A stretch of 64,000 nt of DNA from Xanthobacteraceae bacterium (GCA_022844205.1 JALHMF010000004.1:52979-116978), one strand, 5' to 3'; shown: positions 16,882 to 45,890, counted from the first letter of the stretch. Notes: generated from the sequence alone by a model not told the origin. Translations and numbers: made by a program.

Positions 16882-16882
16882 T

Positions 16883-24971: not shown

Positions 24972-26032
24972 CAGATCCTGCGGCCGCTGCCGCTGTCGAA
25001 GAGATGCAAATGCTCGCGGGCGGCACTTACAGTAATCCTGCCGCCGACTTTCGGGATGTTGTCGTAGAGACGAACGATCACTTCCTTGCCGGTCGGGAGC
25101 TTTCCGTAAATGAAGGTTTCCGCGCCGACGGCTTCCACCACCATGACTTCGAGATCGAACAGGGCACCGCCTTCGATGCCGGAAAGAGTCAAGTGCTCCG
25201 GGCGCACGCCGAGCACGGCCCCTTGCTTCGGAACCGCGAAACCCCTTGCGCCCGAGAGGCCGCCACCTTCGGCGCTTAATCCATCTCCGTCCGCGCGGAC
25301 CGGAATGAAGTTCATCGCCGGCGCTCCGATAAATCCGGCGACGAACATGGATGCCGGCCGTGAGTAGAGTTCCAGCGGAGGCCCGATCTGCTCGATCTGG
25401 CCTAGATTAAGCACCACCAGAATATCCGCGAGCGTCATCGCCTCCAGCTGGTCGTGGGTAACGTAAACGCTGGTGACGTCGAGCGAGCGCTGCAGTTTTT
25501 TGATCTCGACCCGCATCTGCCCGCGCAGCTTGGCGTCGAGATTGGAAAGCGGCTCGTCAAACAAGAACACGGCGGGCTTGCGCACGATCGCGCGCCCCAT
25601 CGCAACGCGCTGGCGCTGGCCGCCGGACAAGTCGCGCGGGCGGCGCTTCAGATACGGCTCGATCTCCAGCATCTTCGCGGCTTCACGCACCCGCGTCTCG
25701 ATCTCGGCCTTGGGCGTGCCGCGATTGCGCAAGCCGTAAGCCATGTTGTCGTAGACCGACATATGCGGATAGAGCGCGTAGTTCTGGAACACCATCGCGA
25801 TGTCGCGCTCGGAGGGTTCGATGTCATTGACGATGCGCTCGCCGATCCGGATTTCGCCGGAGGTGATGGTTTCGATGCCCGCGATCATGCGCAGCAGCGT
25901 GGATTTTCCGCAGCCGGAAGGCCCGACCAGCACGCACAAAGCGCCATCCGGCACGTCGAAGCTGACACCCTTCACGGCCTCGATGCCGCCGGTATAGGTC
26001 TTGCGGACGTCGCGGAGTTTTACCTCGGCCAA
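24971..26032 (-). CDS. ugpC: sn-glycerol-3-phosphate ABC transporter ATP-binding protein
   Basis: 353 aa with Walker [10 protein letters not shown], signature [10 protein letters not shown], Walker B FLFDEPLS and a MalK-type C-terminal regulatory domain. Confidence 0.9.
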
Positions 26033-26033
26033 T

Positions 26034-26885
26034 TCACTTCTCCGTTTCCACGAGACCGCGCACGAACAGCTTCTGCATCAGGATCACGACCGCTACCGGC
26101 GGCAGCATGGCGAGCATCGCGGTCGCCATCACGAGTTGCCACTCGGTGATCGCGTCGGCGGTGACGATCATTTTCCGGATGCCGATGACGATGGTCTGCA
26201 TCTCGTCGCGCGTGGTGATCAGCAGCGGCCAGAGATACTGGTTCCAGCCGTAGATGAAGAGAATGACGAAAAGTGCGGCCATGTTGGTGCGCGATAGCGG
26301 CAGCAGCGTATCCTTGAAAAAACGGAACGGCCCCGCGCCATCGATGCGCGATGCCTCGACGAGTTCGTCGGGGACGGTCATGAAGAACTGGCGGAACAGC
26401 AGCGTCGCGGTCGCGGACGCAATCAGCGGCAGCGTCAGTCCCGCATAAGTGTCGAGCAGGTTGAGGTCGGCGGCGATCTTGTAAGTCGGATAGATGCGCA
26501 CTTCCACCGGCAGCATGAGCGTCACGAAGATCACCCAGAACGCGGTCATCCGCAGCGGAAAGCGGAAATAGACGATGGCATAGGCGCTGATGATCGAGAT
26601 CGCGATCTTTCCGCAGGCGATCACCATCGCCATGATAAAGCTGTTCAGGAGCATGGTGCCGACCGGCTCGCGCGTGGTGCCGGATGTGCCGATGAAAATC
26701 GTGCGGTAGTAATTCTCCAGCATCTGCGAGCCGGGCCAGGGCGGCATCTGGCCGTTGGAGATGATGGTCGGCTCGTGCGTGGACGCGACGAAGGCGAGAT
26801 AGACCGGGAAGGCGACAATGGCGATCCCGATCCAGAGCACCAGATGCGGGATGACGCCTCGCCAGAATGTGCGCTGTTCGACCAT
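26034..26885 (-). CDS. ugpE: sn-glycerol-3-phosphate ABC transporter permease
   Basis: 283 aa, a MalG-type permease with EAA loop [20 protein letters not shown]. Confidence 0.85.
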
Positions 26886-27763
26886 CAGTACGTCACCTTG
26901 CGCTCGACATATTTGAACTGGATCGCCGTCAGTCCGATCACGATGATCATGAGGATGACGGATTGCGCCGCCGAGCCGCCGAGATCGCCGCCGAGACGCC
27001 CATCGAAATAAACCTTGTACACCATCGTCTCGGTTGCCTTCGCAGGACCGCCGCCGGTCATGGCGTCAATGATGCCGAACGTATCGAAGAAGGCGTAGAC
27101 GATGTTGACCACGATCAGGAAGAACGTCGTCGGCGACAGCAGCGGAAATACAATGGTCCAGAAGCGCCGGAAGGGACGGGCGCCGTCGATCGCGGCGGCT
27201 TCATGCAGGCTGCGTGGAATCGCGGCAAGCCCTGCGAGGAAAAACAGGAAGTTGTAGGAAATCTGCTTCCATGCCGCGGCAGCCACCACCATGGTCATCG
27301 CGTGATTGCCGTTCAGCAAAGGATTCCAGTCGTATCCGAGTTCGCGCAGCCCGCGCGCAAGAATGCCGAACGAAGGCTGGAACATGAATGCCCAGAGCAC
27401 GCCCGCGACTGCCGGCGCCACCGCGTAGGGCCAGATCAGCAGCGTGCGATAGATGCCGCTCGCCCGTAGCGGCTTGTCGGCCTGCACCGCCAGCAGCAAC
27501 GCGATCGAGAGCGAGGTGAAGGAGACGATGGTGGAAAAGAAGAGCGTGGTCCCAATCGTGCGGTAATATTCCGCGCTTTCGTAAAGGTGCTTGTAGTTCT
27601 CGAACCACACGAAAGTTGTCGAAAGGCCAAACGCATCCTGCAAGAGAAACGATTGCCAGAGCGCCTGGATCGCCGGCCAGTAAAAAAAGATCATGGTGAT
27701 CGCGATCTGCGGCGCGATCAGCAAAAAAGGAAGAAAACGATTCTGGAAAAGCGCGCGTTTCAT
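26885..27763 (-). CDS. ugpA: sn-glycerol-3-phosphate ABC transporter permease
   Basis: 292 aa, a MalF-type permease with EAA loop [20 protein letters not shown]. The stop overlaps the ugpE start. Confidence 0.85.
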
Positions 27764-27807
27764 GCGAATGAAGCGGGCGGGCCGTCAGTGCGGCCCGCCC
27801 GGATTGA

Positions 27808-29109
27808 TCAGCGTGTAACCGTGCGTTCGAACTGGCGCAGCATGGCGTTGCCGCGCTGCACGGCGCTGTCGAGCGCATCCTTCGCGGACTTTTTGCCCGC
27901 GAGTGCCGCCTCGAACTCTTCCGCCCAGACATCGCGCAACTGCACCATGTTGCCAAGCCGGAGACCGCGGGAGTTTTCCGTCGGCTCCTTGTTGGTCAGC
28001 TCCAGCAGCGGCGTCTCCAGATACGGCGCTTCCTTGTAGTAGCCGGACTCCTTTGTCTTGGCATAAGCCGCCTTCGTGATCGGCAGATAGCCCGACGATT
28101 TGTGGATCGCGACCTGGCGGTCGGTTTCCGACAGGAACGAGAAGAACTTCGCGACGCCTTTGTATTCGTCGGGTTTCTTGCCGCCCATCACCCATAGCGA
28201 AGCGCCGCCGATGATCGAGTTCTGCGGAGCGCCGGAAACATCGGGGTAATAAGGCATCGGCGCGTTGGTCCAGTCGAACTTCGCATTCGACTTCACGTTG
28301 CCGAAAAATCCCGACGAGGTGAGGAAGATCGGGCATTCGCCGGAGGTAAAGCGGCCTTCGCCCGTATTGGTGCGGCCGGAATAGTCGTAGGTCTTGTCCT
28401 TCTGCAATTCGATCAGCGTTTCGAGATGCTTCACGAGCAGCGGGTTGTTAAAGCGCAACTCCGTGTCGAAACCGTCAAGGCCGTTCGCCTTGGTGGAGAG
28501 CGAGACGTTGTGCCATGCCGACATCTGCTCGACGTTCACCCACGTTACCCAGGCATTGGAGAACCCGCAGGTGGCGTAGCCCGCGGCTTTCAGTTTTTTC
28601 GCCGCATCGAAGACTTCCGGCCAGGTTTTGGGGATCGACGCAACATTCGCCTTCTTCAGCGCATCGCGGTTGATCCACATCACCGTGGACGAAGAGTTGA
28701 AGGGGAACGAAAGCATCTCACCCTTTGATGTGGAGTAGTAACCGGTGATCGCGGAGAGATAGGCCTGCGGATCGAATTTCTCGCCGGCTTCCTTCATCAG
28801 CACATGCACAGGCTTCACGGCCCCGGTCGCCGCCATCATGGTGGCGGTGCCGACCTCGAATACCTGCAGGATGTGGGGTGCGTTGCCTGCGCGAAATGCG
28901 GCGATGCCGGCATTCATCGTGTCGGGATAGCTGCCCTTATAGGTGGGCACGACCTTGTATTCTTTCTGCGATTCGTTGAACTCGTTGGCCAGCCGGACGA
29001 CGACTTCGTTGTTGCCGCCCGTCATTGCGTGCCACCATTGGATTTCAACCTGTGCGGACGCGGGCGTCACATAGAAAGCTGCGGCCATGAAAATGGCGAA
29101 GCGGCGCAT
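27808..29109 (-). CDS. ugpB: sn-glycerol-3-phosphate-binding periplasmic protein
   Basis: 433 aa from ATG 29109 ([29 protein letters not shown]). [44 protein letters not shown] closely parallels my recollection of E. coli UgpB ([44 protein letters not shown]). Confidence 0.9.
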   Translation of the reverse strand: [433 protein letters not shown]

Positions 29110-29294
29110 TGATCCCTCCTCGGATGAACTTTGTCGGCGAGGCATTTTCCTGCCCCGTTGCGATCAGCTTACGGGAGAAAAGTGTCGTCTCCAACTGTAA
29201 GCTCGATATATGACAAGCCTTTGAAAATAATACGGTATTGGCTGAACCGCCGGAGGGAGAAAAAGCCTGTCCCGCCAATTCTTCAAGGGAGAAA

Positions 29295-30050
29295 TCAGCT
29301 TTTGATCCAGTACCCGCCGAAATCATCGACCTGCGCGATCGGCTCGTGGATTCCGTGCGCGGCCCGGAATTCGTCAACGGCTTCGCGCTGCGATTCAAAC
29401 AGGAAGTAATCGTCCACGATCAGCGTTCCGCCACGCGAAAGCTTTGCATAAAGGCAGTTCAATCCGTCCATGGTGCTTTCATACAAATCGCCATCGAGCC
29501 GCAGCACGGCGAGCGATTTCACCGGTGCTGCCGGAAGCGTATCCTTGAACAGGCCCTCGAGAAAAATCACCTGATCGTCGAGCAGGCCATAATGCGCAAA
29601 ATTTGCCTTCACTTCTTCAAGCGATACCGCAAACAGGCTGTTGCGATGAAAATCCGCGGCAAGGTCGGCCTCCGATCCGCGGGCGGGAGCGGGTGGTCCG
29701 GCGAACGTGTCCGCTGCGAACACGCGGCGGTTCGCAATGCCATAGGCCTTCAGCACCGCACGCATCATGATGCTGGCACCGCCCCGCCACACGCCCGTTT
29801 CCATGAAATCGCCGGGGATATTGGCCGAGAGCACCCGTTCGCATTCCTGGCGCAGGTTTTCCATGCGCTTGGCACCGATCATGGATGGCGCGGTGGCGGG
29901 CCAGTCCCATCCGTTTTCTCGAAATTCGTCGTTGAAGCCTTCGGCTTTCGATCCCGGCAGGGCCGGGTCGCGGTTCAGCCGTCCGATCAGACTCTCACGC
30001 ATGAGGTCGAGATAGGCCTGGACCGATGGATCGTCGGCGGGCGAGGGCAT
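29295..30050 (-). CDS. TylF/MycF/NovP-family SAM-dependent (sugar) O-methyltransferase
   Basis: 251 aa. GDFMETGVWRGGASIMMRAVL is the SAM-binding block and LRLDGDLYESTMDGLNCLYAKLSRGGTLIVDDY holds the metal-binding Asp residues typical of macrocin-O-methyltransferase-like enzymes. Confidence 0.85.
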   Translation of the reverse strand: MPSPADDPSVQAYLDLMRESLIGRLNRDPALPGSKAEGFNDEFRENGWDWPATAPSMIGAKRMENLRQECERVLSANIPGDFMETGVWRGGASIMMRAVLKAYGIANRRVFAADTFAGPPAPARGSEADLAADFHRNSLFAVSLEEVKANFAHYGLLDDQVIFLEGLFKDTLPAAPVKSLAVLRLDGDLYESTMDGLNCLYAKLSRGGTLIVDDYFLFESQREAVDEFRAAHGIHEPIAQVDDFGGYWIKS

Positions 30051-30146
30051 GGCTGCGCCGTTCTACCGAAACTCTGAAAACCTCACAAACTTGCGGAATT
30101 CGTTGAACTCCGGCTATGGCTGTGCGTTGCGCTTCGCAGGGTGAGG

Positions 30147-31169
30147 ATGGCAAGCAAGAAAATCTTGATTACCGGCGGGGCCGGGTTCGTCGGCTGCAAC
30201 GCGGCGAAGTATTTTGGCGAACGCAACTGGAACGTGACCGTGCTCGACAATCTTTCGCGCACCGGCACGGAGAACAATCTGCAGTGGCTGCGCGATGAAA
30301 CCGCGTTCGATTTTGCGAAAGCAGACGTTCGGGAACGCGCGGCCGTGGACAGCATCGTCTCCGAGGGCCGTTTCGACGCCGTGCTGCATCTGGCGGCGCA
30401 GGTCGCTGTCACAACCTCGGTGATCGATCCGCGCGCGGATTTCGAAGCCAATGCGCTCGGCACGTTCAACATGCTCGACGCGGTCCGGCGTTATCGTCCC
30501 GACACGGTTTTCATCTTTGCCTCGACCAACAAGGTTTACGGCAAGATCGTCACCGCTGAAACGGTGCTGCGCGGCAGCCGCTATGAGTATGTGAACCGCC
30601 CGCACGGCATCAGTGAGAGCGAGCCGCTCGATTTTCTTTCACCTTATGGCTGCTCAAAAGGTGCCGCCGATCAATACGTGCTCGACTTTTCCCGGATTTA
30701 TGGGATTCCGGCGACTGCGTTCCGCCAATCCTGCATCTACGGCACCCGTCAGTTCGGCGTAGAGGATCAGGGCTGGGTTGCCTGGTTTGCGATTGCGTCG
30801 CTGCTGGGTCGGGAGATCACGATTTTCGGCGACGGCAAGCAGGTGCGCGACGTCCTGCATGTGGACGATCTGCTGCAGGCTTATGAGGCGGCAATCCGCG
30901 CACCGGACAAGATCGCCGGTGAGGCGTTCAACGTGGGTGGCGGCCCAAAACAGGTCATGTCGCTCCTGGACCTGATCGGAATGCTGGAGAAAAAGTTCGG
31001 CCGGAAGATTCCGCTGAAGTTCGACGGCTGGCGGCCCGGTGACCAGCAGGTTTACATTAGTGATATTCGCAAGCTTGACCGCCTGCTGGGGTGGAAGCCG
31101 GAAAAGGATGCCGCCGCCGGTGTTTCCCAACTGATCGAATGGGTAAAGCAGAACCGCTCACTGTTCTGA
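30147..31169 (+). CDS. NAD-dependent NDP-sugar epimerase, CDP-paratose/tyvelose 2-epimerase family
   Basis: 340 aa from ATG 30147. KILITGGAGFVG, VLDNLSRTGTENNLQWL, STNKVYG, SPYGCSKGAADQY and GDGKQVRDVLHVDDL are colinear with my recollection of Salmonella Tyv/RfbE. Confidence 0.8.
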   Translation: MASKKILITGGAGFVGCNAAKYFGERNWNVTVLDNLSRTGTENNLQWLRDETAFDFAKADVRERAAVDSIVSEGRFDAVLHLAAQVAVTTSVIDPRADFEANALGTFNMLDAVRRYRPDTVFIFASTNKVYGKIVTAETVLRGSRYEYVNRPHGISESEPLDFLSPYGCSKGAADQYVLDFSRIYGIPATAFRQSCIYGTRQFGVEDQGWVAWFAIASLLGREITIFGDGKQVRDVLHVDDLLQAYEAAIRAPDKIAGEAFNVGGGPKQVMSLLDLIGMLEKKFGRKIPLKFDGWRPGDQQVYISDIRKLDRLLGWKPEKDAAAGVSQLIEWVKQNRSLF

Positions 31170-31446: not shown

Positions 31447-32412
31447 ATGGACAGCGGTCGCAGAGTTCTGGTAACCGGCGGCGCTGGTTTTATCGGTTCT
31501 CATCTTTGCGAGCGGTTGCTGGCTCAGGGCAGCGAAGTCCTCTGCGTCGATAATTTTTTCACATCCACCCGTTCCGGCCTTGTCCATCTGATGGATGACC
31601 CACGCTTCGAGCTGATGCGACACGATGTCTGTTTTCCGCTCTATGTCGAAGTGGAAAATATCTACAATCTCGCTTGTCCAGCTTCGCCCGTTTCCTACCA
31701 GATGGATCCGGTACAGACGACGAAGACCAGCGTGCATGGCGCGATCAACATGCTCGGTCTTGCCAAGCGCCTGAAAGCGAAAATCCTGCAAGCTTCCACC
31801 TCGGAAGTGTACGGCGACCCGGCGGTTCATCCGCAGCCGGAAGAATATTGGGGTAACGTCAATCCAATCGGCCCGCGCTCCTGCTATGACGAAGGCAAGC
31901 GCTGCGCGGAAACGCTTTTCTTCGACTATCACCGGATGCACCAGCTTCGCATCAAGGTGGCGCGTATCTTCAATACCTATGGGCCGAGGATGCAGATGAA
32001 CGACGGCCGTGTCGTTTCGAATTTCGTCGTGCAGGCGCTGCGCAACAAGGACATCACCGTCTATGGCGACGGCGAGCAGACCCGTTCTTTCTGCTACATT
32101 GACGACATGGTCGATGGGCTGATCCGCCTGATGGAGTCCGGAGACTCGATCACCGGTCCGATCAATCTTGGTAACCCGGGGGAGTTCACGATTCGCGAAC
32201 TGGCGGAAATAGTTCTCAACATCACGGGCTCCAGTTCCAAGATCGTTCACCGTCCGCTTCCCATGGACGACCCGAAACAGCGCAAACCCAATATCAGCCG
32301 CGCCCAGGAACTGCTGAACTGGCGCCCGACCGTAAAGCTGCGGGAAGGCCTTGCGCGTACCGTGGCGTATTTCGAAAAACAGATTGCATCCGAGCCGCTA
32401 AAGACGGTCTGA
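31447..32412 (+). CDS. UDP-glucuronate decarboxylase (UDP-xylose synthase)
   Basis: 321 aa. [54 protein letters not shown] and [11 protein letters not shown] form the UXS/ArnA-decarboxylase-type signature set. Confidence 0.85.
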
Positions 32413-32436: not shown

Positions 32437-33423
32437 ATGAGAATTCTCGTCACGGGCGGGGCTGGGTTCATAGGCACCCATCTGAGCCGGAGGCTGCTTG
32501 CCGACGGTCACGAAGTGTCGGTGGTCGATAACGAATCCAACGGCGACCCGTCGCAGCTCCTGAAAGAAGTCCGTTATATGCGTGGCGATGTCGTCCGTCC
32601 GGAAGAGATGGAGCCTGTGTTCGCCCGCGGCCTCGACGCGGTCTGTCATGTAGCGGGCCAGGTATCGATCATCCGCTCGTTCTCGGACCCGGTTGCCGAT
32701 CTGCGGACGAATGTTGAAGGTACGCTGAACGTGATCAATCTGTGCCTGAAATACAAAGTGCCGCGCCTGATCTATGCTAGCTCCATGACGCTTTACGGTC
32801 AGGTGGAGACCGTGCCGACGCCGGAAACCGAACCATGTCTGCCGGATTCCTATTACGGAATCACCAAACACGCCGCGGAACGTTACGTCCATTCCACCGC
32901 CGAGCGGCCGGACTTCGATTTCGATTTCAAGGTGACTTCGCTGCGGATGTTCAGTGTCTACGGGCCGGGGCAGGCCTATAACAATCCCTATCAGGGCGTG
33001 CTTGGCATTTTCTCCGGCAATATCCTGCGTAACGAGCCGATTACTATTTTTGGGGACGGCGAACAGACGCGCGATTTCATCTATATCGACGATGTCATCG
33101 ATGGCTGGGTGCGTGCATTGCATGCGCCGGAAGCCGCCGGAAAGATCATTAATCTGGGCAGCGGCCGTTCCACCTCCATCAATCAGCTCGCGGAAGCGAC
33201 GATCACCGCGTTCGGTTATCCGAAAGGCGGCTATCCGCTTGTGCGCAAGCCGGGCCGTCCGGGCGAGCAGCGCAAGGTGCAGGCGGACATCGCGCAGGCG
33301 AGGGCGGTGCTTGGCTGGGCGCCGAAAACGCCGTTCAAGACAGGCCTTGCAAAAACCGTCGAGTGGGCGCGCAAGGAATTTTCCACAATCGCGCTCGCAG
33401 CCGCAAGCGGAGCCGCCCGTTGA
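32437..33423 (+). CDS. NAD-dependent NDP-sugar epimerase/dehydratase (GalE-like extended SDR)
   Basis: 328 aa with [14 protein letters not shown], the catalytic YGITKHAAE (YxxxK) and GDGEQTRDFIYIDDV. Confidence 0.8.
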   Translation: MRILVTGGAGFIGTHLSRRLLADGHEVSVVDNESNGDPSQLLKEVRYMRGDVVRPEEMEPVFARGLDAVCHVAGQVSIIRSFSDPVADLRTNVEGTLNVINLCLKYKVPRLIYASSMTLYGQVETVPTPETEPCLPDSYYGITKHAAERYVHSTAERPDFDFDFKVTSLRMFSVYGPGQAYNNPYQGVLGIFSGNILRNEPITIFGDGEQTRDFIYIDDVIDGWVRALHAPEAAGKIINLGSGRSTSINQLAEATITAFGYPKGGYPLVRKPGRPGEQRKVQADIAQARAVLGWAPKTPFKTGLAKTVEWARKEFSTIALAAASGAAR

Positions 33424-34523
33424 AGCTTCTGCTGGTTACCTCGGTTGACGCCTGGACCCGCAGCACCGCCACCATTCACAAATGGGTGGAGACCGGCCGT
33501 GCACTCGGTCACGATGTCTCGGTCTACGGCGAGCCGAATGGCGAACTGCCGGCGCTGAATTTTACGACTGATACCTCCGGGTACGATCTGGCGCTTTTTG
33601 TCGTGCAGGTGCCGAGCGATTTTCCGGAAATGCCTTATCTGGCGCGCGTGCTCGACAGTGTTCCACGCGAGCGCCGCGTGCTTGCCGATTTGTGGGGACG
33701 CTATAACGAGACGATCCGGATCGACCACGACTTCAATCATCTGGAAAAACTCGACGGCCATCTTGGCTGGGAATGGGACGACGCGTTTCGCTCCGTATCG
33801 GGTCGCATCGTGCAGCCATCGTTGACGCCGCTCCGGGCGGATGTGCAGCCGTTCCTGTTTCACGGATTTGATTCCGCCTCGATCGTGAAGCCGCATGCTT
33901 CGGCGAAAGATGCCGCCGCCGCCTGGGCGAAAAAACCGCTCGGCATGATGTATGTGGGCAGCAACTGGCAGCGTTGGGAGCAGCTTCGCGCTTTTCTGGA
34001 ACAATATGGAAAAATCCGGGATCGTGCTGGCCCGGCGGCTCTCGTTGGCTGGGACTGGAGCGCTCGTCCCGACTGGGCAGTCGAAAAGAGCATCAAAGGC
34101 GTCGATACCGATCCCGCGTTACTCGCGAGACTGAACGTCGATATACGTCACGGTGTACGTTTCGATGAGATCGTGGCGCTGCTCGGTCAAGCCAAATTCG
34201 CGCCTGTGTTTCATCGCCCGCTGTTTCGGCATCTGGGCTTTGTCACCAATCGCAGCTTTGAGACTTTTTACGCCGATACGATTCCGGTTCTGATGCTGCC
34301 GGAGAATTTCGTGCGCTCGATTTACGGCGACACGGCGCTGAAGCTCGTTCCGGCTGCGGGCGTGAGCACATTCCTGGCGGACGCGATCGCCAACCCCGAA
34401 CCGTATTGGGATGCGGTGCTGCGGACGAGGCAGCATCTGGCGCAGCATCATTCATACAAGATCCGCTTCGATGAACTGGCGGCCATCGCGAAATTTCCGG
34501 TCTCAGCGGGGACAGCGCGGTGA
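33420..34523 (+). CDS. uncharacterised GT-B/CgeB-like (Glyco_trans_1_2-like) protein, paralogue 1 of 3
   Basis: About 367 aa from TTG 33420 (TTGA overlap with the epimerase stop). The track ORF from 33363 would overlap the epimerase by 60 nt. It shares conserved blocks with the next two genes: GHDVSVYG, VPRERRV, DFNH, QPSL, YVGSNW, RSFETFYADTIPVLML and IYG. No TM segment or signal peptide is evident. Confidence 0.6.
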   Translation: MKLLLVTSVDAWTRSTATIHKWVETGRALGHDVSVYGEPNGELPALNFTTDTSGYDLALFVVQVPSDFPEMPYLARVLDSVPRERRVLADLWGRYNETIRIDHDFNHLEKLDGHLGWEWDDAFRSVSGRIVQPSLTPLRADVQPFLFHGFDSASIVKPHASAKDAAAAWAKKPLGMMYVGSNWQRWEQLRAFLEQYGKIRDRAGPAALVGWDWSARPDWAVEKSIKGVDTDPALLARLNVDIRHGVRFDEIVALLGQAKFAPVFHRPLFRHLGFVTNRSFETFYADTIPVLMLPENFVRSIYGDTALKLVPAAGVSTFLADAIANPEPYWDAVLRTRQHLAQHHSYKIRFDELAAIAKFPVSAGTAR

Positions 34524-35578
34524 ATTGTTTGTTCGTCATGAAACATCGCGGCAACGCCGGAAATACACATGCGGTAGCGAACTATATTCGGGTCGCGCCT
34601 AAATTCGGGCACGAGATTGCATTATTTGGCGATCCGCAGCCGCATCTGCCCGAGTTGAAATTCTCCCGCGACATCCGCGCCTTCGACCGTCTCGCGTATC
34701 TGTTCGAATCCGAAATATACCGGTTAAGCCCGCTGCATGAAGCGACCATGCTGGGCTCCGTTCCGAAGCAGCATCGTATCGTTTTCGACATGGACGGCAT
34801 GTATAACCCGGTGATCGAACTCGACGGATACGATTTCAATCATCGTTCCGAGGATGAGCGCGCGGCGTGGGCGGCGCATTACGAGGCGCTTTCAAATAGT
34901 GTGGCGAAGCCGACCATCGCCAAGCCGGATCATCCGCGCGTAAACCCGATGATTTTCTACGGCTACGATTCCACACTGGAACTTCCACTGGAAACGGTAC
35001 CGACAAAGGAATTCGACATTCTGCACGTCGGCCATAACTGGTGGCGCTGGCGGGAAGTGGAATCGGAATTGTTGCCGGCGTTCGAAAAAATCCGGGATCA
35101 GGTCGGCGAGATCGGCTTTATCGGACTTTGGTGGGACCGGCCTCCCCCAGAAGGACCGGAAGCAGGCCCGCAACTTGCATTCCAGTCCGATCCCGAGCGC
35201 TTCCAGCGGCTCCGCATCAAGACAAGCGAAGCCGTAATGTACACCGATGTCATCCGCACAATGAGCAGTGCCAGGATCAACATTTTCACCCAGCGTCCGT
35301 TGCTGCATCACCTGAAGCACCTGACGCTGAAGTATTTCGAGATTTTTTACGCCGACACCATCCCGCTCCTGATGCTTGACCGCGATCTGGTCGAGGCGGT
35401 CTATGGGCCTGCCGCGCGAGAGCTTGTATTGCCCGGCCGTGTCGCGGAAAAAATCCTCGATGCCCTGAGCCGCCCGGATCACTACCGTGAAGTCGTGTGC
35501 GATGTGCGGCGCCATCTTGCTGAAAATTTTTCGTACGATCGGCGAATGGAAGAACTCGTAGCCGCGTTGAAGAACTAG
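34520..35578 (+). CDS. uncharacterised GT-B/CgeB-like protein, paralogue 2 of 3
   Basis: 352 aa from GTG 34520 (GTGA overlap with paralogue 1). Shared blocks are GHEIALFG, VPKQHRIVFDMDGMYN, DFNH, HVGHNW, KYFEIFYADTIPLLML and VYG. Confidence 0.6.
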   Translation: MNCLFVMKHRGNAGNTHAVANYIRVAPKFGHEIALFGDPQPHLPELKFSRDIRAFDRLAYLFESEIYRLSPLHEATMLGSVPKQHRIVFDMDGMYNPVIELDGYDFNHRSEDERAAWAAHYEALSNSVAKPTIAKPDHPRVNPMIFYGYDSTLELPLETVPTKEFDILHVGHNWWRWREVESELLPAFEKIRDQVGEIGFIGLWWDRPPPEGPEAGPQLAFQSDPERFQRLRIKTSEAVMYTDVIRTMSSARINIFTQRPLLHHLKHLTLKYFEIFYADTIPLLMLDRDLVEAVYGPAARELVLPGRVAEKILDALSRPDHYREVVCDVRRHLAENFSYDRRMEELVAALKN

Positions 35579-35600
35579 TTGCTCCCGGAGGAGCAGCAAA

Positions 35601-36650
35601 ATGAAGCTGGTGTTCGTGTACTGGGGTTACGAGAACGCCGGAAGCATGCTGGATTTGCGCGGCTATGCGCGGGCGGCACGCGGCCTCGGGCATGAGGTCA
35701 CGGTTTACGGGCCGCCAAACGATTATTTCAAGCTGGATTATTCGCAGGATTTGTCGCGAGCCGACGCGGTGGTCTTCGTGTTCGAATGGACGACGCATCT
35801 GCAGTTCGGGGACCGCCTCGACTGGGCGCGGTTACTCTCTGCCGTTCCCCGCAGCCGCCGTGTCGTCATTGATTGCGACGGCGCCTACAACGATCCGATC
35901 GAGTTCCGCGGCGATTACAATCATCGTACGCAAGAGGAGAGCAGCAAGTGGATCGAGGTATGCGACAGCATCTCCGACAAGATCCTGCAACCCACGCTGC
36001 GTCCGAAGCGAAAGAACGTACGTCCGTTTTTCTTCCATATCTACGACTCGACCTGGGAAACGCCGCTGGATTTCTCCGCCAAGGAATTCGGCATGATCTA
36101 TGTGGGTCATACGAAATTCCGCTGGCATGGCATGTCGCAGGTCTTAAAAGCGATGGAGCCGGTTCGTGAAAAGCTTGGCCGCGTCGCGTTAGTAGGCGAT
36201 GGCTGGGATCGCGCGATGGAGTGGACCGAGTTTCAGGACATCAAGGCGAATTACTATGTGGACCGGGAATACCTGAAGAAGCTGAACGTTGAAGCGCTGC
36301 CTCCGGTGCCTTTTCCGAAGGTTACGGAGACCATGAACAGGGGCATTTTCAACCCAGTCGTTTATCGGCCGCTGTTCGAGTATCTTGGCATGGTCACCTG
36401 CCGCACGTTTGAAACACCGGCGGCGGGCACGATTCCGCTGTTCCTGCTGGACGAGGAATATGTGACTGAAATCTACGGGCCGCGCGCATCGCAGCTTTTG
36501 CTGGGCGGCGATGCGAGCGGAAGAATCGCCGACGTTGTCACACGTCCCGGGCATTATGCGGGCATCGTGCAGGACATCCGCAAGGATTTTGCAGTCCGGC
36601 ACAGCCCTGAGTCGCGGCTGCGTGAATTGATCGGCATCATTGGGGAGTGA
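35601..36650 (+). CDS. uncharacterised GT-B/CgeB-like protein, paralogue 3 of 3
   Basis: 349 aa with the RBS GGAGGAG 7 nt upstream. Shared blocks are GHEVTVYG, VPRSRRVVIDCDGAYN, DYNH, QPTL, YVGHTKF, RTFETPAAGTIPLFLL and IYG. Confidence 0.6.
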   Translation: MKLVFVYWGYENAGSMLDLRGYARAARGLGHEVTVYGPPNDYFKLDYSQDLSRADAVVFVFEWTTHLQFGDRLDWARLLSAVPRSRRVVIDCDGAYNDPIEFRGDYNHRTQEESSKWIEVCDSISDKILQPTLRPKRKNVRPFFFHIYDSTWETPLDFSAKEFGMIYVGHTKFRWHGMSQVLKAMEPVREKLGRVALVGDGWDRAMEWTEFQDIKANYYVDREYLKKLNVEALPPVPFPKVTETMNRGIFNPVVYRPLFEYLGMVTCRTFETPAAGTIPLFLLDEEYVTEIYGPRASQLLLGGDASGRIADVVTRPGHYAGIVQDIRKDFAVRHSPESRLRELIGIIGE

Positions 36651-38029
36651 GCGTTTTGCTCGGACGCAACCAGGCGCTCAAGGCCGATGGATTGGGCGCG
36701 CCCTCTGCTGGCGCGCATGCACTGCGCATGCAGCTCAATTACGGCTTCAATGAAATTTACGGCTGGTGGCATCTTTCGGAGGGGGAGCACCGGGAGCGCA
36801 TCCAGCGCCGTCTGCGGCTGATGGGAACCAAGGTTATTCGCGTCTTCGCGTTCGATCAGCCCGTGCCGGACCCAGTGAAGGACTGGCGTTCGTTTTCCGC
36901 CTACCTGCAAGGTGTGCTGGATGCGGGCGCGAAGCCGATGGTCACCTTCGCAAAATTCCATCCGCCGTTCGGCGACGCCCGCAATATTGGCAATTTCGTC
37001 TCGCGATGCTCCGAACTTGTCTGGAGCTGCATCGAGCAGTGGGGCGGCGACGAAGTGAAGGACTGGTACTGGTGCGTCTGGAATGAGCCGAACAACCTCC
37101 TTGTCGGCGGCGATCTCAGCTTTTCCGAATACAAGCGCATCTACAAGGAAGTTGCCGCTGCGGTGCTGGTGCAACTTGAGCCGCATCTTCGCGGCCGCAA
37201 GCTGATGCTGGGCGGCCCCGCCATCGACGGTACGCACCGCATGTACTGGATGGACTGGATCGCGCGCCTCGTGAACGAGGTCGATGAGAAAATGATCGGC
37301 TTCGTCTCCTGGCATCGTTACGGCGACTGGCGCCCGGCGGTGCCCAGCGCATCGCTCGGCCTTGAAATGTGGGGCTCGCCCGATTCCCCGAACGGCCGCG
37401 TATTCGAAGCGCTCCTGATGGCGCAGACGCCGGCCTATGAAGCGAATGCGCGCGGCGTCGGCAGGCTCATCGGTGGACGAAAAATCCTGAACGTCTGCGG
37501 CGAACTGAATGCCATGTCGCATCACGAGCAATATTACACGCTCGGCCTGAACCAGAATGCGTTTGGCGGCGCCTATTATTGCTCGGCACTGATCGGGCTG
37601 ATCCGCGGCGGTGCCGAGCTTGAAATGCGCTGGACGGCCACCATCCATACCGATGCTTATGGTCTTGTCGCTATGAATGGCGATCCGACGCCGGCCGGCC
37701 TTGCCAAGCAGATTTTCGCGCAGCATGTGCGCCACGGCGATCTCATCCGCTTCCCGCGTAACCGCCTCGGAGCGACGGACGTGGACGCGATTTTCTCGGA
37801 TGGCGAGGACGGCCGCCGCAGCGGCGTGTTTGTCAACATGTCTTCGAATCCGGAGACGCTCGACGCAGCGGAATGGGATGATGCGCTGAAAACTTGCGGC
37901 GATATTCTGCTCGTGGACACCGGCACCGGAAACAGCGTAATGCGGCTGCCCTTCGATGGAAAAATCCGCTTCAATGGGTATGGAGTAGCGGTCGTTACCA
38001 ACCGCGCTGACGCGACTGAGATCGGCTGA
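36647..38029 (+). CDS. clan GH-A (TIM-barrel) glycoside hydrolase-like protein, GH39/GH5-like, with no signal peptide
   Basis: 460 aa from GTG 36647 (GTGA overlap with paralogue 3). WYWCVWNEPN carries the NEP acid/base motif of clan GH-A. A candidate nucleophile lies in NVCGELNAM. The N-terminus MSVLLGRNQALKADGLGAPSAG is not signal-like. Confidence 0.5.
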   Translation: MSVLLGRNQALKADGLGAPSAGAHALRMQLNYGFNEIYGWWHLSEGEHRERIQRRLRLMGTKVIRVFAFDQPVPDPVKDWRSFSAYLQGVLDAGAKPMVTFAKFHPPFGDARNIGNFVSRCSELVWSCIEQWGGDEVKDWYWCVWNEPNNLLVGGDLSFSEYKRIYKEVAAAVLVQLEPHLRGRKLMLGGPAIDGTHRMYWMDWIARLVNEVDEKMIGFVSWHRYGDWRPAVPSASLGLEMWGSPDSPNGRVFEALLMAQTPAYEANARGVGRLIGGRKILNVCGELNAMSHHEQYYTLGLNQNAFGGAYYCSALIGLIRGGAELEMRWTATIHTDAYGLVAMNGDPTPAGLAKQIFAQHVRHGDLIRFPRNRLGATDVDAIFSDGEDGRRSGVFVNMSSNPETLDAAEWDDALKTCGDILLVDTGTGNSVMRLPFDGKIRFNGYGVAVVTNRADATEIG

Positions 38030-38074: not shown

Positions 38075-38635
38075 GTGGATAAGGCGTTTGGATGGATCGG
38101 GGAAATTTTCCAGACTCTCCTGAGAGTGGTGCCCTGGCTCGTGATCGTGCCGGCGACACACCGGGGAGTGGCATTTGTCCGTGGCTTCAAGGTCAAGGAG
38201 TGGCCACCCGGCTTGCACTGGTACTGGCCGGTTGTGACCACCTACAAGCTGATGACGGTCGTCCGCCAGACGCAGCGTATTCAGTCCAAGGTCATCATGA
38301 CCAAGGATCTGAAAACCGTAACCGTCGGCGCCCTCGTGACCTATGAGGTGGACGATGTGGTTTCCGCGATCGCCAAGGTCGCCGACCTGCCGTCCGACAT
38401 CATGGAGCGATCGCAGGGCGCCATTCTCTCAGTGGTTGCGGAAAGCACCGTTGAGGAAATCCAGAACAATCGCACGCTGTTCAACCAGCAGCTGACCGAG
38501 CGGGTCGGCAATGTGCTGAACGGCTATGGCGTGCAGATTCTGCAAGCGCAGCTTACCGAGTTCGCGCCTTGCCGCGCGCTGGCGATTAACGGCAACGTGG
38601 CGGTTGGCAGTTACACGCTATGGACCGGATTTTGA
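38075..38635 (+). CDS. SPFH/band-7 domain protein with N-terminal membrane anchor
   Basis: 186 aa from GTG 38075. It has a hydrophobic N-terminus (IFQTLLRVVPWLVIVP) followed by an SPFH-like core (RGVAFVRGFKVKEWPPGLHWYWP ... MTKDLKTVTVGALVTYEV ... YGVQILQAQLTEF). Confidence 0.65.
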   Translation: MDKAFGWIGEIFQTLLRVVPWLVIVPATHRGVAFVRGFKVKEWPPGLHWYWPVVTTYKLMTVVRQTQRIQSKVIMTKDLKTVTVGALVTYEVDDVVSAIAKVADLPSDIMERSQGAILSVVAESTVEEIQNNRTLFNQQLTERVGNVLNGYGVQILQAQLTEFAPCRALAINGNVAVGSYTLWTGF

Positions 38636-38662
38636 GATCGAGAGCGCGCGCTCCCGTTCTCC

Positions 38663-39046
38663 TTATTTTTTCTTGCCGTCCTTGTCGAACTGCTTGAGAA
38701 ACGCGATGATATCGGCAATGCGCTGCTCGCCCTTCAAGCCCGCATACACCATCTTGGTGCCTGGAATTTTTTCTTTCGGGTTCTGGATATATTCGGCAAA
38801 GACCTTCTCGTCCCAGACGATGCCGGACTTCTTGTTGGCATCGGAATAATTATAGCCATCGACCGTTCCGGCCGTGCGCCCGAAGAGGCCGTTGAGCAGG
38901 GGCCCGACGGTATTCTTCGCCGTCTCGCCGACCTGATGGCAGGCGCGGCACTGCACGAATACTTTCTCGCCGGCTGCGGCATCTTGCGCCTGCGCGGAGG
39001 GTACGAAGCTAAGGATGGCAGCCGCAGTTAGTACGAACTTCTTCAT
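38663..39046 (-). CDS. class I c-type cytochrome (cytochrome c2/c550-like), periplasmic
   Basis: 127 aa with signal peptide MKKFVLTAAAILSFVPSAQA, haem site CRACH and distal Met block PGTKMVYAG. Confidence 0.85.
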   Translation of the reverse strand: MKKFVLTAAAILSFVPSAQAQDAAAGEKVFVQCRACHQVGETAKNTVGPLLNGLFGRTAGTVDGYNYSDANKKSGIVWDEKVFAEYIQNPKEKIPGTKMVYAGLKGEQRIADIIAFLKQFDKDGKKK

Positions 39047-39068
39047 GGTTTCCTCGATGGATTTGTTT

Positions 39069-40058
39069 TCAGGATAAAGGCGTGAAACGAAATTCCGTTC
39101 CCTTTGTCTCGACCATCCCGTGGCCGGGCCAGGCGATATGGAATGCGATCAGCGGCATTCGCTCTGCGGCAAGCAGACCGAGCATTTTCTTCCGCGTCGC
39201 AATTCCTTTCTCGTGATCGAAATCGGCGCCGACGCGCCAGCCGGGGCGTGCGAAGGAAATTACACCATTGTTAAACACATCACCGCCGATCAGCAGGCGC
39301 TCCTTGCCGCTTTCGAGCATCACGCACATGTGGCCCGGCGTATGACCGGCGGAATCGATATAGCTCAGCCCGGGCGCAACCGCGTCGCCTGCTTTGCGGC
39401 GTTCGATCTTGTTCTCGATTTTCTTCAGGATGCGCGCGGTTCCAATCGCCATGCCCTTCAGCCAGTCCGGCGCCTTCTCGGCGGTTTTGGGATCCATCCA
39501 GAAATCCCATTCGGGGGCAGAGATAATGTAGCTCGCATTGGGGAAACGAGCGCCTTCGTCGAAATCGTCCACGGCGCCCCAGAGATGATCGGCATGCGCA
39601 TGGGTGAAGACGACCTTGGTGATTTTCGCGGGATCGATGCCCGCGGCTTCCAGATTTTCCACGAGCTTGCCCGCGGTCGGCTGGAAGTTGGGACCGGAGC
39701 CCGCGTCAATCAGCACCAGATCGTTGCCGGTTTTGATCAGCGTTACGTTCGTCTGCGATTGTGAAAATTCCTCCGGCTGCCCGTGTGCTTTCAGCAGCGA
39801 GGCGATCTCCGCCGCTGCATTGTCCGGCAGCGCAAACGATTGCGGCACCATCAGCGTGCCGTCGCTGAACACGAAAACCTCAAGCGCTCCAAGTTTTCGC
39901 CTGAATGGAGCGGTGGCGGCGAGGGAAGGCGAGCTCGCCATTCCGGTGACGATACCTGCCGCCGCCATCCCGAGCAGCACGCGGCGGCGATGCGGAAACC
40001 TGTCCCGCATCGCGCGCTTCGTGTTGTTCCTTAAATCAGCCGGACCGGAATTCATCAC
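39069..40058 (-). CDS. soxH: Tat-exported MBL-fold metallohydrolase, SoxH-like
   Basis: 329 aa with Tat motif HRRRVLLGMAAAG and metallo-beta-lactamase motif VVFTHAHADHLWG. It sits directly downstream of soxF (ATGA overlap), matching the position of soxH in the Paracoccus sox cluster. Confidence 0.7.
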   Translation of the reverse strand: MMNSGPADLRNNTKRAMRDRFPHRRRVLLGMAAAGIVTGMASSPSLAATAPFRRKLGALEVFVFSDGTLMVPQSFALPDNAAAEIASLLKAHGQPEEFSQSQTNVTLIKTGNDLVLIDAGSGPNFQPTAGKLVENLEAAGIDPAKITKVVFTHAHADHLWGAVDDFDEGARFPNASYIISAPEWDFWMDPKTAEKAPDWLKGMAIGTARILKKIENKIERRKAGDAVAPGLSYIDSAGHTPGHMCVMLESGKERLLIGGDVFNNGVISFARPGWRVGADFDHEKGIATRKKMLGLLAAERMPLIAFHIAWPGHGMVETKGTEFRFTPLS

Positions 40059-41329
40059 GCGAAGATGTCGGCGATGATGCCCGAGTACCAGCCCATGTTT
40101 TCTTCCTGGGTTTGCTTGCGAACTTCCGGCGACTCGCCGGTCTTCGAGAGAAAAGTCGAGCTGGCGAAAATCTTGCCGTCCTTCGCCTCGTAGCTGCCGC
40201 CGATCTTGATGGTGTCGTCGGTTTCGATGAGGCTCCAGCAGGTGTTGGTGTAGCGGGCCGGGAACGTATCCGACTTGATTAGGTCTCCCCGGATCATCAT
40301 GGCCGCGACCTTCGCCTGGCTGTTGGCGGAAAAACCGGACTTCGGCATGTCGCCCGGAATGCAGCTGTCGCCCACGATGTAGATGTTCTCGTCCATCGCG
40401 GACTGCATGCTCTCCGGTTTGATCGGGCAGAAGCCGCTGTCATTGGCGAGCTTCGCGTCGAGGGCGATTTTCCCGGCCGATTGCGCCGGGATGACGTTGA
40501 TGAGGTTTGCCTTGTAGGTGGCGAGGTCGGTCGTCACCGTCATCGCCTTGGCGTCCACGCCTTTCAGGCCGCCGTGCATTTTCGGATCCTGCCATTCGAT
40601 CATGCCGGGGTAATGCTTTTCCCAGCCTTCGACGAACAGCGCCTGCTTCGAGAAAGCAGGCTTCGGATCGATGCAGATGATCTTCGATTTCTTATGGCCC
40701 TTCGCCTTGAGCACATGCGCCATCATGGAGAGGCGTTCATAGGGTCCGGGCGGGCAGCGGAAAGGATTCGGCGGGGCGATCATGACGATGGTCGCGCCGT
40801 CGGAAAGGCTGTCGAGCTGCTTCTTGAGAAGCACCGTTTGCGGGCCGGCTTTCCAGGCATGCGGCAGCTGTTCTTCCACCGCCTGCGAATAGCCCGGAAC
40901 GGATTCGTATTTCAGTTCGATGCCCGGTGCGAGTACCAGCTTGTCGTAGCCAATCGTGGAGCCGTCGGCGAGCCGCACGGTCTTCTTCTCGCGGTCGATG
41001 CCGGACGCCATCTGCTGGTTGAGGCGGACGCCGTATTTCGAGGCAAGCGCCCCGTAGCTGTGGGTGATCGAATCCAGCGGACGGAATCCGCCGAGATACA
41101 AATTCGAGTGGAAGCAGGTGGTGAAGCTCTTGGCCGGCTCCACGAGCGTCACGTCGATGGCGCCCTTGGCATCGCGTGCGATGTATTTTGCGACTGTGGC
41201 GCCGCCCGGGCCACCGCCGACAACGACGACACGCGGCTTGGCCTGCGCGATGGCGGGCGCGTAAAGACCCGAGGAAAGGGCGACTGCACCCGCGCCCGCG
41301 AGAAACTGTCTGCGATTGGTAGAAAACAT
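40055..41329 (-). CDS. soxF: flavocytochrome c sulfide dehydrogenase flavoprotein (SoxF/FccB type)
   Basis: 424 aa from ATG 41329, preceded by GGGAGG. It has Tat signal NRRQFLAGAGAVAL, FAD fold VVVVGGGPGGATVAKY and an FCSD-type C-terminal domain. Confidence 0.85.
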   Translation of the reverse strand: MFSTNRRQFLAGAGAVALSSGLYAPAIAQAKPRVVVVGGGPGGATVAKYIARDAKGAIDVTLVEPAKSFTTCFHSNLYLGGFRPLDSITHSYGALASKYGVRLNQQMASGIDREKKTVRLADGSTIGYDKLVLAPGIELKYESVPGYSQAVEEQLPHAWKAGPQTVLLKKQLDSLSDGATIVMIAPPNPFRCPPGPYERLSMMAHVLKAKGHKKSKIICIDPKPAFSKQALFVEGWEKHYPGMIEWQDPKMHGGLKGVDAKAMTVTTDLATYKANLINVIPAQSAGKIALDAKLANDSGFCPIKPESMQSAMDENIYIVGDSCIPGDMPKSGFSANSQAKVAAMMIRGDLIKSDTFPARYTNTCWSLIETDDTIKIGGSYEAKDGKIFASSTFLSKTGESPEVRKQTQEENMGWYSGIIADIFA

Positions 41330-41354
41330 TGCGTACCTCCCGAGTATTTTTTGA

Positions 41355-41708
41355 CTACTGTTTTCCATGCCCCGCTTGCGGCAGGCTTCCGAAAAATGCG
41401 GCAAGGGCCGCCACTTCCTTCTCCGACAGCCGGCCCGCGATCGTCTGCATCACCGGATTGTCGCGCTTTTTGCTGCGATATTCGTTCATGATCTCAATGA
41501 AACTCGATTCTGGCCAGCCCACGATCGCCGGGATGCCGACGAAGTTACCGCTCAACTGATGGCAGGTCACGCACTCGCTGGAAAGATATTGGCCATAGGC
41601 TTTGTCGCCGGAAGTCTGTGCTGTTCCCGGCAGCCAGGGTGTTATGGCGAGAATCAAAATGAAAAAAAACAACAAAGACGGAGCGTATATTGCGGCCGGG
41701 AAATTCAT
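41355..41708 (-). CDS. soxE: small monohaem c-type cytochrome (SoxE/FccA-like partner of SoxF)
   Basis: 117 aa from ATG 41708, with a hydrophobic signal and a single CVTCH haem site. It lies between soxD and soxF. Confidence 0.65.
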   Translation of the reverse strand: MNFPAAIYAPSLLFFFILILAITPWLPGTAQTSGDKAYGQYLSSECVTCHQLSGNFVGIPAIVGWPESSFIEIMNEYRSKKRDNPVMQTIAGRLSEKEVAALAAFFGSLPQAGHGKQ

Positions 41709-42418
41709 TCCACTCTCGGGCCTTTGCCCGTTTCCGGCGTCACGTCGATTACACGCGCGCGGCCTGTGACTTTCGCCTCGCCGGGGGCGCAGTTCTTCAT
41801 GCATGGTTCTTTTCGCCAGAACGCGCGCTCCGATTTTTCGCGGTCATCTTCGGTGAAATTCGCCTGGTTCGGAAGTTTGATCGAAGAAAAATTCTTGTCA
41901 TTCAACTCGAATTTCTCATCTTTAATCACGTCGTTCAAATACAGCACATAGGCGGTCACCGCATAAAGCTCGTCGTTGGTGAGCGTCTGGGCGGCCCCAT
42001 AAGGCATCGCCCGGCGGATATAGTCGATCAGCGTGGAGGCATAGGGCCAGTAGGATCCGACCGATTTCACCGGATCGTGACTGGCGAGCGTAGCATTGCC
42101 GCCGCTGAGGATCGGCCAGCGTCCCGCGCTCTCGCCGAACTCGCCGTGGCATGAGGCACAGCGCTCGACATAGATCGGCTCGCCTTCCTTTACCGTACCT
42201 TTTCCGGGCGGAAGTCCCTGGCCGTCCGGGCGGATGTCGATGTCCCAGCCGGCGATTTCCTCGGGCTTCGCTTCGCGGCCGATGCCGAGCGGCTTCGGTT
42301 TCGCTTTCTGTGCCTGTGCATGAACAAGGCGCGGCTCGATCATTTGCGTAACGCCGAAAGTCAGCACGGCGACCAAAAACGCTCCGAACAGCGCGAAGGC
42401 CTTAGGAGACTTCGACAT
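41705..42418 (-). CDS. soxD: sulfane dehydrogenase cytochrome c subunit SoxD (short monohaem form)
   Basis: 237 aa from ATG 42418 (MSKSPKAFALFGAFLV), overlapping the soxC stop by 17 nt. It has a single CASCH site plus the WPYASTLIDYIRRAMP block typical of SoxD. Confidence 0.8.
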   Translation of the reverse strand: MSKSPKAFALFGAFLVAVLTFGVTQMIEPRLVHAQAQKAKPKPLGIGREAKPEEIAGWDIDIRPDGQGLPPGKGTVKEGEPIYVERCASCHGEFGESAGRWPILSGGNATLASHDPVKSVGSYWPYASTLIDYIRRAMPYGAAQTLTNDELYAVTAYVLYLNDVIKDEKFELNDKNFSSIKLPNQANFTEDDREKSERAFWRKEPCMKNCAPGEAKVTGRARVIDVTPETGKGPRVE

Positions 42419-43691: not shown

Positions 43692-43719
43692 GACTGGCTC
43701 CGTCAGATGCCCGACAATC

Positions 43720-43735
43720 ATGCAAGAAATTGCAT
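43720..43735. promoter_or_regulatory. perfect 6-4-6 palindrome ATGCAAgaaaTTGCAT in the AT-rich soxB-soxC spacer
   Basis: The 121-bp spacer is the only sizeable gap inside the minus-strand sox gene string and is visibly AT-rich. TTTGCA is repeated nearby (ttttgcattttgc at about 43753-43765). Confidence 0.4.
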
Positions 43736-43812
43736 ATGTCGAGATAAAAAAATTTTGCATTTTGCGGCGAAGGGGACACTGGTTCGCCGTAGAAAATACG
43801 ACCAAGAGACAA

Positions 43813-45495: not shown

Positions 45496-45527
45496 CGAAC
45501 GCTCCGTGTCGCCGCCGGAGCGGGAAC

Positions 45528-45857: not shown

Positions 45858-45890
45858 CGAAATCTCCTCAATCCTGTTATGCGCTGCGCG

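Follow-up and report, generated by a model that had tools for sequence, protein, structure and literature searches.

Three tandem, anciently diverged paralogues in a conserved operon of a Xanthobacteraceae bacterium are putative GT-B-fold glycosyltransferases of a predicted glycan pathway

Do three consecutive, deeply diverged copies of one protein of about 350 residues work as a single assembly, or one after another on a common product? This question is raised by three tandem open reading frames (ORFs), here called paralogues A, B and C, in a 64,000-nucleotide stretch of the genome of a Xanthobacteraceae bacterium (GCA_022844205.1, JALHMF010000004.1:52979-116978; this whole stretch is the window, and all positions are counted from its first nucleotide). 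An original prediction, made by reading the sequence, had left both options standing, either a hetero-oligomeric assembly or sequential transferases with distinct donor specificities. On the basis of fold prediction, sequence conservation and gene neighborhood, we consider it probable that A, B and C are soluble cytoplasmic glycosyltransferases acting sequentially to build a defined glycan, and comparison of related loci leans towards this option rather than towards an obligate hetero-trimer.

The three proteins are paralogous from end to end, as had been claimed, with full-length BLASTP identities of 29% between A and B (E 2e-49), 35% between A and C (E 9e-61) and 33% between B and C (E 4e-68), and a MAFFT alignment supported the same relationship. 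Exact copies of A, B and C with identical lengths were found by database search in public metagenome assemblies. The MAFFT alignment also recovered nearly all of the shared motifs that had been listed, namely GH[DE][VI]xx[YF]G, VP[RK]xxR[VI], D[FY]NH, [YH]VG[SH], FE..A.TIP, [IV]YG and the C-terminal R.......[HF]S, the list being slightly too strict at three places: A reads DLWGRYN where DxDGxYN was given, and B reads KPTI for QP[ST]L and KYFE for RxFE. The N-terminal (acceptor) and C-terminal (donor) domains are similarly diverged among the paralogues (25-36% versus 32-35% identity, no clear asymmetry), and unequal divergence of the two domains was dropped as a clue to specificity.

Structure prediction and profile searches agreed on the fold. 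For B, an AlphaFold2 model based on an alignment of 69 sequences reached a pLDDT of 93.3 and a pTM of 0.91 and consists of two Rossmann-like halves with alternating strands and helices. Searched against the PDB with Foldseek, it gave 209 matches at E ≤ 1e-3, and all 50 of those listed are GT-B enzymes, including T4 BGT, AGT, SenB, PimA, PglA, BshA, MshA and GlgM (E 1.5e-9 to ~1e-6, TM 0.55-0.67); A and C can be aligned to B over their full length by MAFFT and BLASTP. In Pfam, B scored 25.5 bits against PF13524 (Glyco_trans_1_2), whose gathering threshold is 25 bits, C fell just under it with 23.6 bits, and A had no Pfam match at all. Across 69 family members, PF13524 was matched by 57 at E ≤ 0.01, and no other Pfam family recurred. 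The family shares with the CgeB-like branch of PF13524 a two-domain GT-B fold and a C-terminal Rossmann half in which the [RK]xFE...A..TIP block aligns, with its FE positions matching the Pfam model, but it is set apart by the N-domain motifs DxDGxYN and D[FY]NH and by scores that lie at or below the threshold, A being undetected. The two Rossmann-like halves and the placement near Glyco_trans_1_2 were both part of the original prediction, and the checks of fold, of kinship with an unrelated enzyme class and of formal alignment all left it standing. The DUF3880 match that it had put forward for checking did not appear, neither in A, B or C at E ≤ 1 nor among the 69 relatives at E ≤ 0.01, and the CgeB architecture of an N-terminal DUF3880 followed by Glyco_trans_1_2 was rejected for this reason.

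The description of the family as unannotatable was overstated, given that B reaches the PF13524 threshold, although it holds for A in Pfam and for all three proteins in NCBIfam, where nothing significant was found and C gave only a chance-level match (E 0.1, 11.9 bits against a cut-off of 349). NCBI names one of the orthologues ‘glycosyltransferase’. A PDB sequence search with a profile of the three proteins returned only chance-level matches to ThyX and Rpp30 (E 0.35-1.4), so that the family has no solved relative by sequence. Taken together, fold model and profile matches support A, B and C as GT-B-fold proteins of a small subfamily at the edge of Glyco_trans_1_2. In the literature we found no description of the family or of its operon; the subfamily is uncharacterised, yet it is part of a very well-known enzyme class, and the cluster type is conventional rather than a new kind of system.

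Closer inspection of the putative catalytic residues suggests that all copies are still active enzymes. Across 197 proteins, each of the three clades formed by A, B and C and their orthologues keeps D90, D105, N107, H108, R176, R259 and E274 (B numbering) at 92-100% conservation, and E274, R176 and R259 reach 98-100% in all three. Since every clade keeps these key residues, the idea that some copies are pseudo-enzymes or scaffolds was rejected; no copy looks like a dead enzyme from its sequence, and all are predicted to be catalytically competent. A His/Glu signature of GT-B enzymes has been described for PimA, MshA and ManT (PMC9883506), and His108 and Glu274 of B are reminiscent of it. The likeness to the retaining GT4 enzymes (PimA, MshA, BshA, PglA and ManT) extends to the overall fold (Foldseek E 1e-8 to 1e-6), to their being soluble and cytoplasmic, and to the conserved N-domain His and C-domain Glu, reminiscent of the GPGTF signature (PMC9883506). 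However, A, B and C are only 10-13% identical to these enzymes and do not conserve the first Glu of the EX7E motif: eight residues before E274, A has H, B has K and C has E in the MAFFT alignment. Pfam gave no match to PF00534 (Glycos_transf_1) in A, B or C, and membership in GT4 was rejected on the lack of this match and on the conservation of the second EX7E Glu (E274) only.

The list of structural matches could suggest another use of the fold, namely the glycosylation of a small molecule, a protein or a nucleic acid, or an activity outside the Leloir type. The top Foldseek matches, T4 BGT, AGT and SenB, are small GT-B enzymes that act on DNA or on a selenium compound, and lipid-carrier machinery was not found nearby. 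Yet the E-values of BGT, SenB, PimA, PglA and BshA are similar at 10-13% identity, so that the ranking is unspecific, and no phage relatives were found, which together led us to reject kinship with phage DNA-glucosyltransferases. Nucleotide-sugar enzymes and a glycosidase adjoin the three genes, other glycosyltransferases accompany the family in distant loci, and the presence of several sequential copies argues for chain building. We therefore regard any such use of the fold as highly improbable.

This brings us to the operon itself (Table 1). The overlapping stop and start codons that had been reported are real at A/B (GTGA), and further overlaps occur between SDR3 and A (TTGA) and between C and the GH39-like gene (GTGA), whereas 22 nt separate B from C and the ribosome-binding site GGAGGAG precedes C. 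From these gene overlaps, A, B and C are predicted to lie in one translationally coupled operon, and a single terminator-like site after the SPFH gene ends it.

Table 1 Features of the predicted operon and its divergent neighbor in the window
Feature	Position	Strand	Properties
TylF-type sugar O-methyltransferase	29295-30050	-	Divergent from operon; Pfam TylF 290 bits
SDR1, CDP-tyvelose 2-epimerase-like	30141-31169	+	PDB 9rl0 E 2e-104, 1orr E 5e-87
UDP-glucuronate decarboxylase (UDP-xylose synthase, UXS)	31447-32412	+	Human UXS1 structures E 1e-119
SDR3, UDP-sugar 4-epimerase-like	32437-33423	+	Pfam Epimerase 204 bits; PDB 4zrm E 3e-59
Paralogue A	33420-34523	+	367 aa, TTG start; putative GT-B glycosyltransferase
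Paralogue B	34520-35578	+	352 aa, GTG start; putative GT-B glycosyltransferase
Paralogue C	35601-36650	+	349 aa, ATG start; putative GT-B glycosyltransferase
GH39-like clan GH-A glycosidase	36647-38029	+	Pfam GH39 (PF01229) 36 bits; predicted cytoplasmic
Small SPFH/Band-7 protein	38075-38635	+	186 aa; Pfam Band_7 85 bits; last operon gene
Terminator-like hairpin and T-run	38640-38671	+	7-bp stem at 38640-38661, then CTTATTTTTT

Among the neighboring enzymes, the TylF-type protein has NovP, MycF and 4cdz as PDB relatives (E about 1e-70). For the GH39-like protein, the PF01229 match exceeds the cut-off of 26 bits and is limited to residues 104-226. Its AlphaFold2 model (pLDDT 84.6) is consistent with the (beta/alpha)8 barrel plus beta-sandwich of GH39, and Foldseek matched it best to the GH39 beta-xylosidase XynB1 (2.8e-17), to the biosynthetic GH39 endoglycosidase PslG (5bx9, 1.6e-16) and also to a GH79 beta-glucuronidase. 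The acid/base motif NEP (N146-E147-P148) is invariant in 38 orthologues, and the likewise invariant E286 is the candidate nucleophile. Hydropathy analysis found no hydrophobic segment in the GH39-like protein and no transmembrane or signal-like segments in the operon enzymes; only the SPFH protein is hydrophobic at its N-terminus (KD19 hydropathy 1.50).

To place the three paralogues among their relatives, profile searches were run against 1.84 billion representatives, of which only 468 clusters (at 50% identity) passed E ≤ 1e-3 and 329 the stricter limit of 1e-10, with many fragments among them, indicating a small, sharply bounded family outside the GT-B continuum visible to HMMER. A locus survey with one scanned genome per species, in which genes were labelled by tblastn, returned 76 loci, and the order SDR3, A, B, C, GH39-like gene is nearly universal across them. 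The A-B-C order is kept in ~70 loci from at least six phyla. Carriers within the Hyphomicrobiales are Hyphomicrobium, Filomicrobium and Rhodomicrobium as well as metagenome-assembled genomes (MAGs) labelled Xanthobacteraceae, Hyphomicrobiaceae and Devosia, and others are the marine myxobacteria Enhygromyxa and Paraliomyxa, one Myxococcaceae MAG, and members of the Acidobacteriota, Gemmatimonadota, Nitrospirota, Binatia and Actinomycetota. Between two and eight copies are present per locus. Most Alphaproteobacteria carry three and one locus carries two (L063, A and C), while four copies are arranged as A-B-C-C in L053, L056, L064 and L075 and as A-B-B-C in L017, the four-copy loci including several from Acidobacteriota, Nitrospirota and Myxococcota. 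Six, seven and eight copies occur in L073, L055 and L061, respectively, in which the C clade expands to up to six copies in other phyla.

A neighbor-joining tree of 74 members separated clades A, B and C with bootstrap values of 1.00, 1.00 and 0.99. All extra copies fall into clade C, apart from one B duplicate, and in different phyla the sub-clades of C correspond to the place of the gene in the series, as first, middle or last C. As the three clades each span several phyla, the triplication predates the spread of the cluster, which bears out the original prediction of an ancient event. Enhygromyxa is nested among the Alphaproteobacteria in this tree, and this suggests that the module has been transferred as a whole. 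Three single loci deserve mention in their own right. In a Hyphomicrobiaceae MAG, the entire A-B-C-GH39 module is present twice in tandem (L032:4386-13462). The other two come from assemblies of organisms in which the cluster would not be expected. In the one assigned to Leptospira interrogans LS0056 (L062), the genes are arranged as in Alphaproteobacteria, SPFH gene included, and are 64-77% identical, so that this locus looks like assembly contamination. Kocuria sp. M4R2S49 (L073), with its six copies and an ABC exporter, resembles Gemmatimonadota and Acidobacteriota loci, which suggests either transfer or contamination.

These survey data also bear on whether A, B and C could form an obligate hetero-oligomeric glycosyltransferase complex, perhaps a single polymerase-like machine with interdependent subunits. 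Such a complex would fit the strict tandem order and co-occurrence in ~70 loci, the stop/start overlaps, which imply stoichiometric co-expression, and the separate maintenance of the three clades over long evolutionary time. Against it stand a copy number that varies from two to eight and distant members that are found singly. Moreover, the putative catalytic residues are kept in every copy, whereas scaffolding subunits often lose theirs, and the profile search of the 1.84 billion representatives showed no protein in which A is fused to B or B to C. Based on the variable copy number, the fixed gene order and the catalytic-type residues in all copies, stepwise action is favored over an obligate hetero-trimer, and we consider the complex unlikely.

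The genomic context gives further hints to the pathway in which sequentially acting transferases would work. Clustering of all ORFs of the related loci with 8-kb flanks showed that SDRs co-occur in 73 loci and that the GH39-like gene lies downstream of the glycosyltransferase genes in 68. By the tblastn labels, SDR1 adjoins the cluster in most loci, and SDR3 directly precedes A in nearly all 76. In 55 loci an SPFH gene follows immediately 3' of the GH39-like gene, and all of these but L017 are labelled alphaproteobacterial. In 41 related loci a TylF gene lies no more than 8 kb from the cluster, and UXS is adjacent in about half of the alphaproteobacterial ones. UDP-glucose dehydrogenase occurs in L073 and L017, a GT2 enzyme together with a class-I methyltransferase in L056 and L064, which also carry a second GH39-like gene, and a methyltransferase in L024; the methyltransferases that recur in these three loci from other phyla are non-homologous. 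L075 contains a carbamoyltransferase and a GDSL-type enzyme. The actinomycete MAG L071 has three copies, whose neighbors include an ABC-2 permease as well as genes of the GT4-like and GT8-like types. More distant relatives that occur as single copies are found in ordinary polysaccharide clusters, together with genes for GT2, GT4, pyruvyl- and carbamoyl-transferases.

One fusion protein was found in the family, the 1044-aa P0168 from forest soil (L081:1021-4155), in which the GT-B domain (residues 1-343) is joined to a GT2-type domain (~394-492). The remaining ~550 residues of P0168 have no Pfam match, and its gene adjoins an FkbM-type methyltransferase and an epimerase. In the Myxococcaceae MAG L064, a DUF5916 protein and a 719-aa ABC exporter flank the cluster (L064:39-2348 and L064:14925-17081), and this exporter has a ~170-residue N-terminal extension ahead of its transmembrane domain.

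From the enzymes encoded with A, B and C, a working model of the pathway can be drawn. Ancient duplications would have given rise to the three transferases, each still catalytically competent, and these would be co-translated with the donor-making enzymes from a single operon. UXS would supply UDP-Xyl, the most certain donor; the 4-epimerase-like SDR3 may give UDP-L-Ara or another 4-epimer, a plausible donor as well, and SDR1 may produce a 2-epimer such as a mannose-configured sugar, so that a 2-epimerised hexose is also plausible. Each Leloir-type transferase would then form one linkage, giving stepwise a hetero-oligosaccharide or repeat unit on the cytoplasmic side, and lineages with up to eight copies may make longer or more branched chains. 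The TylF-type enzyme would O-methylate a sugar of the product, which is probably a pentose-containing, O-methylated glycan, and the cytoplasmic GH39-like glycosidase may trim, size or recycle the chain. In Alphaproteobacteria, the small SPFH protein may anchor the machinery at the membrane. The product may be exported by an ABC transporter, as hinted by L064, L073 and L071, or be retained in the cytoplasm.

Several points weigh against this model. Many related loci lack UXS in the 8 kb on either side of the cluster, so that xylose and arabinose may not be universal constituents, and translational coupling and strict co-occurrence would be equally compatible with a hetero-complex. The B model shares only 10-13% identity with solved GT-B enzymes at TM scores of 0.55-0.67. 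Furthermore, the conserved core comes without an initiating polyprenyl-phosphate transferase, flippase, polymerase or exporter, and none of these was found within ~10 kb of the operon in the Xanthobacteraceae genome. A search for a conserved exporter or initiating transferase gave none in the window or the alphaproteobacterial loci; only L064 and L073 have an ABC_membrane-type exporter, encoded directly 3' of the GH39-like gene, besides the ABC-2 permease of L071.

The lack of export genes raises the possibility that the product stays inside the cell as an O-methylated oligo- or polysaccharide. Soluble GT-B enzymes would elongate its chains, a methyltransferase would modify them, and the glycosidase would cut existing ones into primers in a self-recycling manner. 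The analogy here is the mycobacterial methylmannose polysaccharide (MMP) cluster, which comprises ManT, MeT1, MeT3 and MmpH, the last with an (alpha/alpha)6 fold (PMC9883506). Both are compact sets of one or more soluble GT-B transferases, one or more sugar O-methyltransferases and a cytoplasmic glycosidase, without an exporter, and the shared logic includes a primer-generating hydrolase (PMC9883506). In addition, signal peptides and transmembrane segments are lacking in all enzymes, the GH39-like protein included, the conserved alphaproteobacterial core has neither exporter nor flippase nor initiating transferase, and methyltransferases recur across phyla. Nevertheless, the non-alphaproteobacterial loci L064 and L073 have an ABC exporter after the GH39-like gene, and the ABC-2 permease in L071 points to export. 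The components are also not homologous to the MMP enzymes: ManT is a GT4 enzyme and A, B and C are not, the MmpH fold differs from the (beta/alpha)8 fold of the GH39-like protein, and the MMP cluster has no SDR nucleotide-sugar enzymes. Membership in the MMP system was thus rejected in favor of analogy only, and we regard an MMP-like intracellular product as quite unlikely.

Two further systems resemble the operon in its composition while differing in the parts. In the Psl locus of Pseudomonas aeruginosa, as here, a gene for a GH39-fold glycosidase stands beside glycosyltransferase genes in a glycan-biosynthesis operon, and PslG ranks second among the structural matches of the GH39-like neighbor. 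PslG itself is anchored in the membrane or located in the periplasm, and genes for Wzx/Wzy-type and polyprenyl machinery are part of the Psl locus. In contrast, the GH39-like protein of our operon has no hydrophobic segment, no such machinery lies nearby, and the glycosyltransferases belong to another family. The operon for the arabinose-containing polysaccharide (APS) of the alphaproteobacterium S. meliloti encodes Uxs1, Uxe, a transferase and hydrolases (PMC7902896, PMC12560781). It follows the same logic of UDP-xylose synthase, 4-epimerase, one or more transferases and one or more glycoside hydrolases, but a single synthase takes the place of the three GT-B paralogues, and an ApsE-like exporter is absent here. 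A tblastn search with C and the GH39-like protein against the 72,556 plasmids of PLSDB found no homologue. The APS operon is located on the pSymB megaplasmid, which we assume to be within this collection. Because of the missing plasmid homologue, identity with the APS operon through homology to ApsS and ApsH was rejected, provided that pSymB is among these plasmids. Overall, no homology of components to the APS, Psl or MMP systems was found beyond generic SDRs.

The remainder of the window contains genes of other functions. Directly downstream of the operon, a sulfur-oxidation gene set occupies 38663-46600 on the minus strand and encodes a cytochrome c, a metallo-beta-lactamase-fold protein, a flavocytochrome c sulfide dehydrogenase flavoprotein, a SoxCD-like molybdoenzyme and cytochrome, a SoxB-like 5'-nucleotidase, SoxZ and SoxY. 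Just upstream of the TylF gene, at 23475-29145 on the minus strand, lie a sugar-type ABC importer (solute-binding protein, two permeases and a MalK-like ATPase) and an FGGY carbohydrate kinase; the importer does not accompany the cluster elsewhere. At 16003-19328, a stretch free of tandem repeats shows a strongly negative AT skew (-0.32 at 16-18 kb) and overlaps two ORFs of 292 and 330 aa, after which come two ABC ATPase-like genes; the skew at 16-18 kb probably reflects T-rich codons of membrane permeases.

In conclusion, this study defines a clean, compact GT-B subfamily with three or more positional orthologue groups and a neighborhood that is highly conserved over at least six phyla. What goes beyond the routine is the positional orthology of two to eight paralogues together with a cytoplasmic GH39-like enzyme and an SPFH partner, both unusual accessories for a biosynthetic operon, and the variable number of paralogues in a fixed order offers a natural series for the idea of one transferase for one linkage. 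The makers of the predicted glycan would be common soil, drinking-water and wastewater bacteria such as Hyphomicrobium, Filomicrobium, Rhodomicrobium and Xanthobacteraceae. As a decidedly speculative extension, the module may make an intracellular O-methylated glycan of defined length, with one paralogue per sugar, re-priming by the glycosidase and a membrane patch organised by the SPFH protein. To our knowledge, polymethylated storage or chaperone polysaccharides have so far been reported from actinomycetes only, and if this proposal were true, such polysaccharides would extend to Hyphomicrobiales, Acidobacteriota, Gemmatimonadota and other lineages.

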